In this document: positions 13,047 to 17,232 of the stretch, piece by piece
How the letters are laid out: each line of letters starts with the position of its first letter
Position numbering within the stretch: the stretch's first letter is position 1
Source: Alphaproteobacteria bacterium
Lineage (GTDB): Bacteria; Pseudomonadota; Alphaproteobacteria; SHVV01
Direction: 5' to 3'
NCBI GenBank assembly: GCA_965261735.1
Contig: OZ253470.1
Location: forward strand, 4,160,001 to 4,224,000
DNA: 64,000 bases
Notes under the pieces: generated by a model
Seen by the model: the letters and a program-made list of their open reading frames with translations, nothing else
Told to the model about the DNA's origin: nothing
The model's database searches: none
Program-made: the position numbers and the translations under genes

Positions 13047-13158
13047 GCCTGTCCGCCATCAAAACAAATGGGACTGTTAACCGTGTTTCATAAGGGAGGA
13101 TCTGGCTCATCTTTGTTTGATGTTAAGCCGCTTGGCGTTGATGGCCCAAGCGGTGGTT
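13047..13158 (+). repeat. ~112-bp inverted repeat, left copy (pairs with 17121-17232)
   Basis: GCCTGTCCGCCATCAAAACAAATGGGACTGTT...AAGCGGTGGTT is near-identical to the reverse complement of 17121-17232. Confidence 0.9.
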
Positions 13159-13320
13159 TTGGGTGGTCAGTTTTTGATCCTTTTTCCCTTTTTGTCAACG
13201 GCGGCGGGAATATGTACCGGGGCGGCGCTGCAAAAATGATGGAGTGGACGCCTCCTCCCGACGGCATCTGCATGTGCCAAGGTGGTGTTGTAGTTCGACC
13301 CCCTGAAGGAGGAGGCATCC

Positions 13321-14343
13321 GTGGAACAGGTTACCATCGTCGGGATTGATTTGGCGAAGCGCAGCTTTCAGCTTCATGGTGCTGGGGCGGACGGCTCTGT
13401 CGTGTTCCGCAGGAAGCTGAGCCGGGAGAGATTGCTGGACTTTCTCGCTTCTCAGCCGCGCTGCGTGGTCGCGATGGAGGCTTGCGCGGGCGCTCACCAA
13501 TGGGGCCGCGAGATCGGAGAGCTCGGCCACGAGGTGAGGTTGCTCCCGCCGGTCTACGTCAAGCCGTTCGTGAAGCGGCATAAGAACGACATGGCGGATG
13601 CAGAGGCGATCTGCGAGGCGGCGCAGCGCCCGACGATGCGCTTCGTGGCGGTGAAGACGAAAGAACAGCAGGCCAGGGGAATGCTGTTCCACACGCGCGA
13701 CCTTCTGGTGCGCCAGCGCACGCAGACGATCAACGCGTTGCGGGGCCACCTGGCGGAGTTTGGCGTTGTCGCGCCGCAGGGACCGGCTCATGTCGATCGG
13801 CTGGCATCGGCCCTCCAGGGTCCAGGTTCAGGGCTGCCAGGATCGGTCCGTGAGCTGGGCGCCCTTCTGCTCGATCGGATCGAGGACCTCGATGCGAAGA
13901 TCGACGGATTGAGGAGGGAGCTCCGCGCCCGCGCGTGTCAGGACGAAGAGGCGGCACGGCTCATGACGATCCCCGGCATTGGGCCGATCACCGCAATGGC
14001 AATCCAGGCCTTCGCACCGCCGATGGAGAGCTTCCGACGCGGCCGCGACTTCGCGGCCTGGCTCGGGCTCGTGCCGCGACAGCACACGACCGGCGGCAAG
14101 CCAAGGCTTGGCAGGATATCGAAGATGGGCCAACGCGATCTGCGGCGGCTGTTGATCACGGGCGCCATGGCTGTGGTCAGCTGGGCGGCTCGGCGTGGCG
14201 CGACGAACGACCCCTGGCTGGCCAGGATGCTGGCCCGCAAGCCGAGAATGCTGGTCGCGGTGGCGCTGGCCAACCGGATGGCACGCATCATCTGGGCGCT
14301 GACAACGAAGAAGGAGAGCTACCGGGCTCCCGCCGCCGCCTGA
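13321..14343 (+). CDS. IS110-family DEDD recombinase/transposase
   Basis: VGIDLAK, VAMEAC, KNDMADAEAI, IPGIGPITA, AAWLGLVP. Confidence 0.96.
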   Translation: MEQVTIVGIDLAKRSFQLHGAGADGSVVFRRKLSRERLLDFLASQPRCVVAMEACAGAHQWGREIGELGHEVRLLPPVYVKPFVKRHKNDMADAEAICEAAQRPTMRFVAVKTKEQQARGMLFHTRDLLVRQRTQTINALRGHLAEFGVVAPQGPAHVDRLASALQGPGSGLPGSVRELGALLLDRIEDLDAKIDGLRRELRARACQDEEAARLMTIPGIGPITAMAIQAFAPPMESFRRGRDFAAWLGLVPRQHTTGGKPRLGRISKMGQRDLRRLLITGAMAVVSWAARRGATNDPWLARMLARKPRMLVAVALANRMARIIWALTTKKESYRAPAAA

Positions 14344-14399
14344 GAGGACGGCGAAAGGCGGAGAGCCGTCGGGGATGTGGGCAGGTCGGAGGACAGGTA

Positions 14400-14590
14400 A
14401 GGGCAAACGGTCAATCGAGACGGGATCGGGAAAACCAGTCGTGGTACACGGAGCTTTCAAGCCCGCAAAAATGATCTTGGACCCGGTCCGCGCATCTCCA
14501 TACAGGCCCGCGGCGTCAAACCAGCCGCATCATGAGGCCGGACAGATGACTGCACCTGACCGCATGTGCCGAACCGTCCGAAGAAAGGCT
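14400..14590 (+). ncRNA. putative seekRNA/bridge RNA of the IS1111-type element (ends approximate)
   Basis: Contains CGTGGTACA and GCAAAAATG (match the two target halves) and CTCCAT and ACAGATGA (match the donor circle junction). Confidence 0.7.
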
Positions 14591-14750
14591 TGCATCAACG
14601 GAGGCGTCCACAGATGTACCACGGGCTCGGTGGTAGCTTGTCCGCATAGTCCATGGGAGGGACCCGCGCGCGGGGCGACGCGCCCTCCGCGCGGCTGGCG
14701 GCGGCCCGCGCGTGAGAGGGGCGTGTGGGCCCACGCGGGCAAGCGGGGGG

Positions 14751-15515
14751 TTATTCGGACGGTTGCCGGCGTCGTGACCGGCTCTGCTTGAGCCGGTAGC
14801 TCTCGCCGTTCATCTCCAGGATATGGACATGGTGGGTGATGCGGTCGAGCAGCGCGCCGGTGAGGCGCTCGCTGGCGAAGACCGTCGTCCATTCCTGGAA
14901 GGGCAGGTTTGAGGTCACGATGGTGGCGCCGTTCTCGTAGCGCCGGCTGAAGACGTCGAACAGCAGCTCGCTTCCGGTCTGCGACAGGGGCACGTAGCCG
15001 AGCTCGTCGACGATCAGGAGATTGACCCTGGCGAGCTGGGCCTGGAGTCGGAGCAGCCTCTTCTCGTCGCGCGCCTCGATCAGCTCGTGGACCAGGTGGG
15101 GGGCGGTGGCGAAGCGCACGCCGAGGCCCTTCTGGCAGGCGGCGAGGCCGAGGGCGAGAGCGACATGGGTCTTTCCGACGCCGCTCGGGCCGAGCAGGAT
15201 TACGTTCTCGCGGCGCGCGATGTACTCGCCGCGGGCGAGATCCAGCACCAGCATCTTGTTGAGCGCCGGGATCGCCTTGAAGTCGAAGCTCTCGAGCTGT
15301 TTGACGACAGGGAACCCGGCCTGCTTGATACGCCGTTCGACGAGGCGGCGCTCGCGGTCGATCAGCTCCAGCTCCACCAGCCGGGCCAGGAACTGCACAT
15401 GATCCAGGCCCTCGGCCGCGCACTGGCGCGCCAGTTTCTCGTATTCCCGCAGGAAGGTCGGCAGCTTCAGCCTCTTCAGGTGATGTTCGAGCAGGATGCG
15501 GGGGGCCTCAGCCAT
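14751..15515 (-). CDS. istB: IS21 helper ATPase IstB
   Basis: GPSGVGKTH, LLIVDELGY, TSNLPF.EW, ALLDRITHH. Confidence 0.95.
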   Translation of the reverse strand: MAEAPRILLEHHLKRLKLPTFLREYEKLARQCAAEGLDHVQFLARLVELELIDRERRLVERRIKQAGFPVVKQLESFDFKAIPALNKMLVLDLARGEYIARRENVILLGPSGVGKTHVALALGLAACQKGLGVRFATAPHLVHELIEARDEKRLLRLQAQLARVNLLIVDELGYVPLSQTGSELLFDVFSRRYENGATIVTSNLPFQEWTTVFASERLTGALLDRITHHVHILEMNGESYRLKQSRSRRRQPSE

Positions 15516-17010
15516 GGCCGGCCCCTCCGGCCAGCAGGATGGCGTAGTCGGCGCTCCGCGTGGCGGCGACGAAGGGCTGGGGCAGGTGCGGATAGCGCGA
15601 CAGGTCGAGATGCACGGGCCGCCTCTCGATGCGCGCCAGCAGGAGATGCTTGACCGCATCGAAGCCGATCAGGCGCCGCTTCACCGCGTCGCGCACCGCG
15701 GCCGCCACCTGCCGTTCCGGGAAGTCTTCGTGCAGGCGCAGCACCTGGATGTATTCGCGCTTGCCGCGCGGGCCGAAGCGGGCTTCGAGGAGGCGGCGCA
15801 GCGTGTCGAAGGCGGGATCGAGCTTCCATCCCCGCAGCGGCGCCGCCTGGTCCAGGGCGCCCGGCTTCTTCTCCAGCAGCGACAGATAGTGCAGCGGGTC
15901 GTAGATGACGTCGCCGCGGACATAGGAGCGCCGATGGCGGGCGACGATCTCGGCGCCGAGCGCGATCTCGACCCGGTCGACATAGCCCTTCACCATGACC
16001 TTCTTGTGGGCGTGCGCCGCCGGCGCCGAGTAGTCCACCAGCCGGTAGCGCACCAGGGCCGTGGACGAGATCTGGCCCGGCACATGCTCGCAAGCCTCGA
16101 AGGGAACCGCCGGCAGATCGCGCAGGGCCTCGAGATCGGCCAGCGCCGCCGCCGCCTGCCCCCCTGCCTCCAGCGCGTCGAGCCGCTCAAGGCAGCGCGC
16201 CAGCAGCCGCTCGTTCAGGACCGACAGGTCATGCACCTTCGGGATCGGCACCATGAACCGGCGCCGTGCCGTCTTCACCAGGGCCTCGACCTTGCCCTTG
16301 TCGTTGCCCTTGCCGGGCCGGCCGAAGCGGTCGCGGAACAGGTAGTGCGATTGCAGATGCGTGAACGCCTGCGTGCGCCGACGCGTGCCGTCGCCCAGGA
16401 TCCTCGCCACCGCAAGCGTCGTGTTGTCATAGAGGATCGATCGCGGCACACCGCCGAGGAAGGCGAAGGCGCTGACATGGCCGTCCAGGAAGGCCTCCGT
16501 CGTCTCCCTCGGATAGGCCTTGACGAACCAGACGTTGGAATGGGGCAGGATCAGGCAGAAGAAGGCAACCTTCTCCCGCCTGCCCCCGACCTCCACCACC
16601 GCCTCGCCGAAGTCGACCTGGGCATGGCCCGGCGGGTGATGCAGCGGCACAAAAGCCTCGCGCGTCGACTGCCGCCGAGCCCGGACATAGTCCTTCACGA
16701 TGGTATAGCCGCCGGTGAACCCGTGCTCGTCCCGTAGCCGCTCGAATATCCGGTGCGCCGTGTGGCGCTGCTTGCGCGGCACGTCCGGATCCGTGTCCGC
16801 CTCCAGGATCGCGTCGACGATGCCGGTGAACCCGTCCAGCTTGGGCCGCCGGACCGGCTTCGTCCGGCGGTAGCCCGGTGGCGCCGAGTAGGTCAGCATC
16901 TTCTTCACCGTGCGACGGTCGATGCCGAACCGCCGGCCCGCCTCGTGATGACTCAGACCCTCGTCGACAACCGCCAGTCGAACCGCCGCATAGAGCTCCA
17001 CGCCGTACAT
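15508..17010 (-). CDS. istA: IS21 transposase IstA
   Basis: KQRHTAHRIFERL, AQVDFGEA, YDNT, KGNDKGKVE. Confidence 0.95.
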   Translation of the reverse strand: MYGVELYAAVRLAVVDEGLSHHEAGRRFGIDRRTVKKMLTYSAPPGYRRTKPVRRPKLDGFTGIVDAILEADTDPDVPRKQRHTAHRIFERLRDEHGFTGGYTIVKDYVRARRQSTREAFVPLHHPPGHAQVDFGEAVVEVGGRREKVAFFCLILPHSNVWFVKAYPRETTEAFLDGHVSAFAFLGGVPRSILYDNTTLAVARILGDGTRRRTQAFTHLQSHYLFRDRFGRPGKGNDKGKVEALVKTARRRFMVPIPKVHDLSVLNERLLARCLERLDALEAGGQAAAALADLEALRDLPAVPFEACEHVPGQISSTALVRYRLVDYSAPAAHAHKKVMVKGYVDRVEIALGAEIVARHRRSYVRGDVIYDPLHYLSLLEKKPGALDQAAPLRGWKLDPAFDTLRRLLEARFGPRGKREYIQVLRLHEDFPERQVAAAVRDAVKRRLIGFDAVKHLLLARIERRPVHLDLSRYPHLPQPFVAATRSADYAILLAGGAGHG

Positions 17011-17120
17011 CTCGTGCCCCTCGTCGCAACCGACAAGGGACCATGAGTGGCACAATTTTGCGCCGCCGCGACCGGACCGCCCGGCCGCCTCGCGTGGAGC
17101 ATTATTCCTCCGCCGTTAAC

Positions 17121-17232
17121 AACCGCCGCTTGAACCATCAAAGCCAAGCGGCTTAACATCAAACAAAGATGAGCCAGATCCTCCCTTATGAAACACGCTC
17201 AACAGTCCCATTTGTTTTGATGACGGACAGGC
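17121..17232 (-). repeat. ~112-bp inverted repeat, right copy
   Basis: Reverse complement of 13047-13158 with a few substitutions. Confidence 0.9.

Follow-up and report, generated by a model that had tools for sequence, protein, structure and literature searches.

The insertion sequences (IS) IS4321 and IS5075 target Tn21-family inverted repeats, and the mechanism of RNA-guided insertion and the family that uses it have been known since 2024. For IS1111 elements, the Tnp domain of the transposase is defined by the motif GL-P----S(t)G in the relevant section of PMC11187229, and excerpts of PMC10122671 describe the ends of IS21-family elements as terminal inverted repeats with two direct repeats each. 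Here we analyzed a 64,000-nt stretch of contig OZ253470.1 (GCA_965261735.1), called the window below, whose positions serve as coordinates unless marked otherwise. The window contains an IS1111-family insertion sequence that is located in the right end of an IS21-family element. This insertion sequence is a clear natural example of the known RNA-guided family and not a new kind of system, and it is very probably an active or recently active element that was led into the IS21-family end by its own guides. An earlier reading made from the letters of this DNA alone (the sequence-only reading) had proposed an IS1111-type element programmed against an IS21 terminal repeat.

The recombinase encoded by the element matched the Pfam families PF01548 (DEDD_Tnp_IS110, 1.7e-14) and PF02371 (Transposase_20, 1.1e-24), and its D, E, D and D residues and the S/T-G loop aligned to the solved chains of ISCro4 and IS621. 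At the position of the Tnp motif it reads GLVPRQHTTG. The subterminal inverted repeats are perfect, 12 bp long (IS1111: 7-17 bp) and each located 5 nt from its own terminus, and the non-coding region is longer downstream of the recombinase gene than upstream of it (273 nt versus 82 nt), as is typical of IS1111 elements. Every testable defining feature was found, both for the family and for its guide RNA. The assignment to IS1111 is supported alike by the Pfam domains, the subterminal repeats and the 3′ non-coding region, and the element is an intact IS1111-family insertion sequence. By direct reading, deletion of 13239-14616 (1378 bp) fuses GCTGCAAAAATG with TACCACGG, showing that the element splits R2, the inner repeat of the IS21-family right end. 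ATG is present at both junctions, which makes the boundary ambiguous by 3 nt. The insertion caused no target duplication, and the repeated letters represent the shared core only.

Four short motifs in the 3′ non-coding region, two of which the sequence-only reading had matched to the target halves and two to the circle junction, were all present by direct reading (segments 1-4 in Table 1). When the 237-nt non-coding region was shuffled 200000 times by mononucleotides, segment 1 appeared 156 times, segment 2 219 times, CTCCAT 4274 times and segment 4 748 times, while the guide segments 1 and 2 were never present jointly (0/200000).

The genome contains 19 full-length copies of the element, namely the copy in the window, two identical ones, one with 97%, one with 86% and fourteen with 81-82% identity, and these copies fall into three guide types. 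The four type-A copies carry the guides CGTGGTACA/GCAAAAATG and are inserted at GCAAAAATG^TACC[A/G]CGG, the single type-B copy carries GGGTCAA/GCAAAATTG and is inserted at CAAAATTG^ACCCC, and the 14 type-C copies carry ATCCGAACGG/GCGTAACCG and are inserted at [N]AACCG^TTCG-like or, written out further, GTAACCG^TTCGG-like sites. Donor segment 4 and the right end of the element read ACAGATGA and CCACAGATG in types A and B and ACACACGA and CCACACACG in type C, with TG as the shared core of the former two types and CG as that of the latter. The flanks and an alignment of the 3′ regions revealed that the four segments vary jointly with both the target and the ends of the element itself. In particular, segment 4 tracks the right end (types A and B, ACAGATG; type C, ACACACG; more variants in other families), and this covariation holds in the three types of this genome and in most families described below. 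Segment 3 matches ATGG, beyond which a G:U pair or one mismatch is tolerated. All four copies with the type-A guide lie in IS21-like ends, 46 bp inside the terminus, which is what the sequence-only reading had led one to look for. The type-B copy is located just past a 36%-identical istB, with its relative orientation being that found in the window.

In type C, the left guide sequence [N]AACCG was found at 11 of 13 distinct sites, while the right flank starts with TTCG at 6 of 13, with a one-base shift at 3 and with an unrelated sequence at 4, a pattern that looks like half-site-tolerant insertion. An example copy is located at G000:C1:656364-657733, and in the copy at 3602213-3603581 the recombinase gene is frameshifted. 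Copies C5, C10 and C13 have a common left flank, and C10 and C13 also a common right flank; these identical flanks indicate a segmental duplication near 3.60-3.64 Mb. A second IS1111-type subfamily, termed D, is present in about 10 copies with 51% identity and 14-bp subterminal repeats GTATGGACGCCCCC (e.g., G000:C1:1963934-1964932). Its right flanks begin with AATG[CT]C[CG]GCA-like sequences and are not IS21 ends, and we therefore rejected IS21-end targeting by this subfamily; the location of two of its copies beside istA is probably a coincidence.

To compare guides and targets on a broader basis, the best 80 of 555 relatives from genome contigs (66-86% identity) were examined. Parsing of their ends via the subterminal repeat succeeded for 63 loci, while 17 were short contigs or lacked the motif, and L037, L061 and L092 were dropped owing to mis-parsed or truncated ends. 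The parsed loci and the 19 copies described above gave 79 records, which comprise 74 distinct insertions and 45 guide families. A search for the best 9-mer over the whole non-coding regions was too noisy (cognate 7.0/7.25 versus control 6.5) and was replaced by a position-anchored test, which compares the aligned guide window with the word expected from the flanks and scores their longest exact match. In this test, cognate matches had mean lengths of 6.64 nt for segment 1 and 6.42 nt for segment 2, compared to 3.27 and 2.95 nt for non-cognate ones, and the observed match sum was reached by none of 2000 permutations of the family-to-target assignment. Thus, the guides covary with their targets both among the sister copies of this genome and across 45 guide families.

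Eleven of the 80 loci have homologues of IstA or IstB in their 3-kb flanks, among them all seven loci with a type-B guide. Together with the type-B copy described above (B1), all eight type-B elements, from 5 genomes, are inserted in IS21-family ends with the IS21 terminus on the element's left, four of them in right ends and four in left ends. As for the four type-A copies, the position and orientation relative to the IS21 terminus are the same in all eight, so that insertion is site- and orientation-specific. The IS21 ends hosting type B contain repeats of the form CGGCGT[GC]CAA[AT]ATTGACCCCC, and the guide variants GCAAAATTG and GCAATATTG fit different ones of these repeats: L033 (guide GCAAAATTG) is located in the terminal repeat of an IS21 end, L042 (guide GCAATATTG, 9/9) in the second repeat, and L032, L034 and L035 in the L2 repeat. 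The occurrence of guide variants for several IS21 repeats indicates that this lineage lives as a parasite of IS21 ends, which supports the interpretation of the element as a hyperparasite. A different location was observed for another relative (77% identical; L065:2886-4319), which lies between istA-like and istB-like genes of a distant IS21-family element and not in its end.

For structure prediction, 42 non-coding regions (types A, B and C and 39 loci) were aligned and folded with RNAalifold. The loci were taken from 44 locus representatives, of which L044 was dropped as a near-duplicate and L093, L059, L060 and L087 because of longer, atypical regions. In the consensus fold, the base stem GGTCA/TGACC pairs 14409-14413 with 14557-14561. 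In the internal loop of stem-loop 1 (14423-14489), segment 1 precedes (5′) and segment 2 follows (3′) a small covarying hairpin, and stem-loop 2 (14505-14539) is flanked by segment 3 at its 5′ side and segment 4 at its 3′ side. The core comprises 28 pairs, 98.2% of the cells are paired, and 12 pairs show compensatory changes. The observed values were matched by none of 500 shuffles on any of five measures, and sliding the partners by 1-3 columns lowered pairing to 19-45%. The fold of the single sequence had a z-score of -2.1 and a shape unlike the consensus, and we relied on the alignment fold. The sequence-only reading had raised the question of whether the four motifs lie in two internal loops. 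All four are indeed unpaired between covarying helices, and the target guides lie in an internal loop, whereas the donor pair is part of a multiloop instead, a position reported for the donor nucleotides of many IS1111 orthologues in the portion of Durrant et al. (2024, PMC11208160) that treats them. Taken together, the guides are complementary to both target strands, lie in an internal loop and covary with the targets.

A search of the non-coding region against Rfam matched no family there; a hit to Ms_AS-4 (23.7 bits, E 0.65) was on the opposite strand inside the gene and was taken as chance. Contigs from two RNA libraries span 14409-14643, but a contig from a DNA run begins at 14410, so that these contigs do not demonstrate transcription. 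Depth in the RNA libraries is not readable as expression either, and 14409/14410 was rejected as the 5′ end of an RNA, since contigs start there in DNA and RNA runs alike.

The proposal that excision of the element restores the second IS21 repeat was confirmed not only by the direct reading described above, but also by an empty end in the same genome and by public contigs. The single uninterrupted end of the type-A kind in this genome, GCAAAATTG|TACCACGG, has one mismatch to the type-A guide, and the other four of the five such ends are occupied. Contigs of the public runs X3 and X16 join 13235 to 14614 and thus skip exactly 1378 bp, with 3 ambiguous letters. Loose contig ends of run X1 read the empty site from both sides, and in a loose end of run X3 the right end of the element is joined to CGCCACTCATGG, a sequence similar to repeat L2 in the left end.

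The letters of the proposed junction promoter, TTGCAT-N17-GATG+AT, are present by direct reading and would come together across a circle junction. The sequence CTTGC is at least 90% conserved in the 42 relatives, and a promoter scan found no sigma-70-like site in the integrated element. In analogy to ISEc11, a promoter formed at the junction is plausible.

In an alignment obtained with HMMER, the second Thr of HTTGG is placed opposite the Ser of YESG in IS621, which is Ser243 in chain 8wt6_A. We take this residue to be the catalytic Ser241 of IS621 (Hiraizumi et al. 2024, PMC11208158), assuming a two-residue offset. TTGG is present in all 18 intact copies of the genome, and a Thr precedes the Gly in 119 of 121 close homologues, with T (77), S (41) or R (1) as the residue before this Thr. 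None of the five clusters among the close homologues is a named one. IS5075, to which the recombinase is 40% identical over 99% of its length, reads STGG at this loop. The Thr at the usual Ser position had been pointed out in the sequence-only reading; its presence holds, but it is no peculiarity of this element, and, judged from these sequences, it is a family trait and not a defect. Similarly, the designation as a candidate programmable recombinase is true, but of the whole family, and adds nothing specific. Because the Thr is uniform in this clade, it offers a convenient place to ask whether Thr serves as the nucleophile.

Three other explanations have to be weighed against guide-directed insertion by an active element. 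If the target were chosen by the protein alone, as was long thought for the IS1111/IS110 family, the matching words in the non-coding region would be chance or captured target remnants, and the weak right-half matches of many type-C insertions would fit such a view. However, the joint absence of both 9-mers from all shuffles and the covariation across 45 guide families, unmatched in all permutations, speak against chance, the words lie in variable, unpaired parts of a conserved covarying fold, and published experiments with ISEc11 and IS621 (PMC11187229; PMC11208160) also argue against it. We consider protein-only targeting highly improbable. An equally remote explanation is that Thr in place of the nucleophilic Ser has left the element without catalytic activity, and that it persists merely as a relic. 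The alignment of this Thr with Ser241 of IS621 would be in line with a loss of activity, but TG in 119 of 121 close homologues and STGG in IS5075 are not, and SG or TG at the catalytic position is described for IS1111 transposases in the corresponding part of Siddiquee et al. (2024, PMC11187229). Moreover, three copies are identical, and the reading frame is intact in 18 of 19 copies.

A single insertion might also have been carried along by IS21 transposition, with later decay of the IS21 copies, instead of four targeting events. The copy in the window is located in the only full-length IS21 of its type, the other three type-A copies being in truncated remnants, and L032, L034 and L035 have identical IS21 flanks in one assembly, both of which would be expected from such passive transport. 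On the other hand, copies A1-A3 show 0/1378 differences, compared to differences at 4-8 of 104 positions in the IS21 flanks, indicating that the insertions are younger than the divergence of their hosts, unless gene conversion homogenised the elements. In addition, the empty end is present in public contigs, where the end of the same element is also found fused to a left-end repeat, the repeats taken by type-B elements vary between genomes (R1, R2 and L2), and an interrupted IS21 should not move if IstA needs R2. Passive transport as the general explanation is therefore unlikely, though somewhat less so than the two explanations discussed before, and independent, recent, guide-directed insertions remain the preferred one.

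Several observations weigh against guide-directed insertion by an active element in this form. The inner hairpin between the target guides has an A:C mismatch in type A (14452 and 14463), at positions that hold A-U or G-C in relatives and are completely paired in types B and C. Segment 3 forms pairs with the left ends of type C only via G:U, its CACCAT variants mismatch ATGGAG at one position, and the right-half guide match is poor in about half of the type-C insertions, so that the guide match is not the whole rule. The putative junction promoter fits the consensus at 7 of 12 positions, and the circle-junction joint was absent from the contigs of four public runs, which drop rare forms. Type A was found in 0 of 7 other genomes of the order and is known from one genome and partial public contigs, no metagenome contig had the degenerate type-A guide pattern, and L032-L035 come from one assembly, need not be independent and may have moved with their IS21 host.

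In the mechanism that we propose in analogy to ISEc11 and IS621, the element would be excised as a circle in which ...CCACAGATG abuts ATGGAGTGG.... An RNA of about 150 nt derived from the 3′ non-coding region (14409-14561) would bind to the recombinase, its two donor segments would hold the circle junction, and the two sides of the internal loop would hold both strands of the target GCAAAAATG^TACCACG, with an overlap on the TG core. The DEDD/Thr-Gly active site would then exchange strands after the core, resulting in position- and orientation-specific insertion without duplication. The target would be R2 of the IS21-family right end, and the guide variants of sister lineages would fit R1, R2 and L2 of other IS21-family ends.

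The claim that the host is an IS21 end was substantiated by Pfam, which identified both IstA and IstB. As expected for IS21, istA (rve DDE) is followed by istB (AAA+), the termini start with TG, and each end has two direct repeats. R1 and R2 have the common letters AA[T/A]ATGTACC and start 24 bp apart, L1 and L2 are similar, and in the five IS21-like ends of the genome homology begins at TGTCAAC. The target duplication of 4-8 bp that IS21 generates was not found around this copy, as tccctttt precedes 13193 and accgccg follows 17121. According to the pertinent part of PMC10122671, IstA of IS5376 requires two complete direct repeats in each end for in vitro integration. Since the insertion splits R2 and displaces its inner half by 1378 bp, the host IS21 end is, by this analogy, probably disabled.

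Table 1. Features of the locus in the window (+, forward strand; -, reverse strand).
Feature	Position	Strand	Remarks
IS1111-family insertion sequence, guide type A	13239-14616	+	1378 bp; boundary blurred by shared ATG/TG core
Left subterminal inverted repeat GTGGACGCCTCC	13244-13255	+	Direct reading; 5 nt from left terminus; relatives with equal geometry
Recombinase gene, 340 amino acids, GTG start	13321-14343	+	DEDD RuvC-like domain and Tnp domain, motif GLVPRQHTTGG
Predicted bridge/seekRNA core, 153 nt	14409-14561	+	Base stem GGTCA/TGACC around two stem-loops, 1 with the target loop and 2 with the donor segments
Guide segment 1 CGTGGTACA	14440-14448	+	Pairs with top strand of core TG and right target half TACCACG; internal loop, 5′ side
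Guide segment 2 GCAAAAATG	14465-14473	+	Same letters as left target half and core, hence pairs with bottom strand; internal loop, 3′ side
Donor segment 3 CTCCAT	14496-14501	+	Reverse complement of the first 6 nt of the element, ATGGAG; unpaired in consensus fold
Donor segment 4 ACAGATGA	14542-14549	+	Identical to the element's last 7 nt and first nt
TTGCAT, putative -35 region complete only in the circle	14590-14595	+	Followed by N17, then GATG+AT
Right subterminal inverted repeat GGAGGCGTCCAC	14600-14611	+	Direct reading; also in relatives
IS21-family element (host)	13193-17121	-	2551 bp without insertion
IS21 right end, outer 46 bp	13193-13238	-	Terminus TGTCAAC, R1, left half of R2
Repeat R1 AATATGTACC	13209-13218	-	Within first repeat GGGAATATGTACCGG, 13206-13220
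IS21 right end, inner part	14617-14750	-	Right half of R2 (TACCACGG) and spacer to istB
istB, helper ATPase	14751-15659	-	PF01695, 1.1e-74
istA, transposase	15508-17055	-	PF00665 and PF22483
IS21 left end	17040-17121	-	Terminus TGTTAAC at 17121, repeats L1 and L2; L2 GCAAAATTGTGCCAC, unoccupied here

The IS21 element is bordered by two copies of a repeat of about 110 bp, arranged as an inverted pair (13047-13158 and 17121-17232); one abuts the left terminus and the other lies 34 bp off the right terminus. At least 8 further solo copies with 90-100% identity occur at other places in the genome. This repeat is not part of IS21, because other IS21 ends lack it, and it may represent an element resembling miniature inverted-repeat transposable elements (MITE-like) or repetitive extragenic palindromes (REP-like), or a preferred IS21 target. 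Furthermore, loose contig ends of runs X1, X3 and X15 show a junction with the right end of another IS1111-type element, ...GGGAGGCGTCCATAT, at 14717, in the stretch that separates the IS21 right end from istB. A further relative thus appears to target a second site in IS21 in other samples.

At L038:2919-4295, a type-B element is interrupted in its 3′ non-coding region by a sibling IS1111-type element of 1377 bp. The insertion site, AAGGGCAAACG^GTCAATCGAGA, corresponds to the foot of the base stem of the guide RNA, and the guides of the sibling match the conserved scaffold with 8/9 and 7 nt. The type-B host is itself located within an IS21-family right end, resulting in a three-level nest.

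Our literature search turned up no IS1111 element reported to aim at end repeats of the IS21 family, with ISfinder, Partridge & Hall 2003 and supplementary target tables, which may list such elements, lying outside this search; provisionally, we regard the IS21-end target as new. It would add a natural target class, the repeated transposase-binding motifs of IS21-family ends, and implies that one insertion sequence disables another. We suggest only tentatively, as a possibility with the odds rather against it, that types A and B (about 85% identical) form a dedicated lineage of IS21-family parasites, a natural RNA-guided 'IS21 killer', whose guides diversify along with sequence variants of the IstA-binding repeats (R1, R2, L2), which splits these repeats and immobilises the host by insertion, and which is itself attacked by a sibling aimed at the conserved guide-RNA scaffold of the family (L038). 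If true, insertion sequences would be engaged in a three-level arms race that is legible in their guides.

The relatives also constitute a natural reprogramming series, in which recombinases with 66-86% identity are combined with at least 45 guide pairs on one conserved RNA scaffold. It includes cases in which one base of the guide has changed after one base of the target (AAAAATG versus AAAATTG, AAAATTG versus AATATTG). The series can serve as ground truth for guide design, for the choice of the core (TG or CG) and for the tolerance of mismatches in half-sites, in a type of element that is less studied than IS621.

With respect to lifestyle, IS4321 and IS5075 are the closest studied systems. 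They share the family and the architecture with the element described here as well as the specific insertion into a terminal repeat of another transposable element, and the STGG loop of IS5075 corresponds to TTGG. In contrast to their targets, the Tn3-family inverted repeats, the target here is a direct repeat of the IstA-binding type in IS21 (R2, and R1 and L2 in relatives), the recombinase has an identity of only 40%, and the element occurs in uncultured Alphaproteobacteria and environmental assemblies instead of enterobacterial plasmids.

With respect to the guide RNA, ISEc11 offers the closest parallel in the descriptions given in PMC11187229. The seekRNA of ISEc11 is likewise encoded in the 3′ non-coding region, with the top-strand segment located 5′ of the bottom-strand segment and the two overlapping in the target, and ISEc11 also has subterminal repeats and a promoter at the circle junction, which is putative in our element. 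The long form of its seekRNA has 154 nt and the core predicted here 153 nt, a comparison of RNAs by description only. The target of ISEc11 is different, and the element described here is known from its sequence alone. The bridge RNA of IS621, in the accounts drawn from PMC11208160 and PMC11208158, is bispecific and has a target loop as well as donor-binding nucleotides, as predicted here, and the two elements have in common a dinucleotide core present in target and donor and a DEDD site combined with a Ser/Thr-Gly loop. IS621, however, is of the IS110 type, with the RNA located 5′ of the gene, subterminal repeats of 2-3 bp, the core CT and Ser as nucleophile, whereas in the element of the window a multiloop contains the donor segments, the core reads TG (CG in type C) and the nucleophile position is occupied by Thr. 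Finally, ISEc21, as characterised in the same part of PMC11187229, is also RNA-guided and has its natural target in another insertion sequence, but it belongs to the IS110 type and is aimed at a conserved coding stretch of IS3-family transposase genes and not at the end repeats of IS21.

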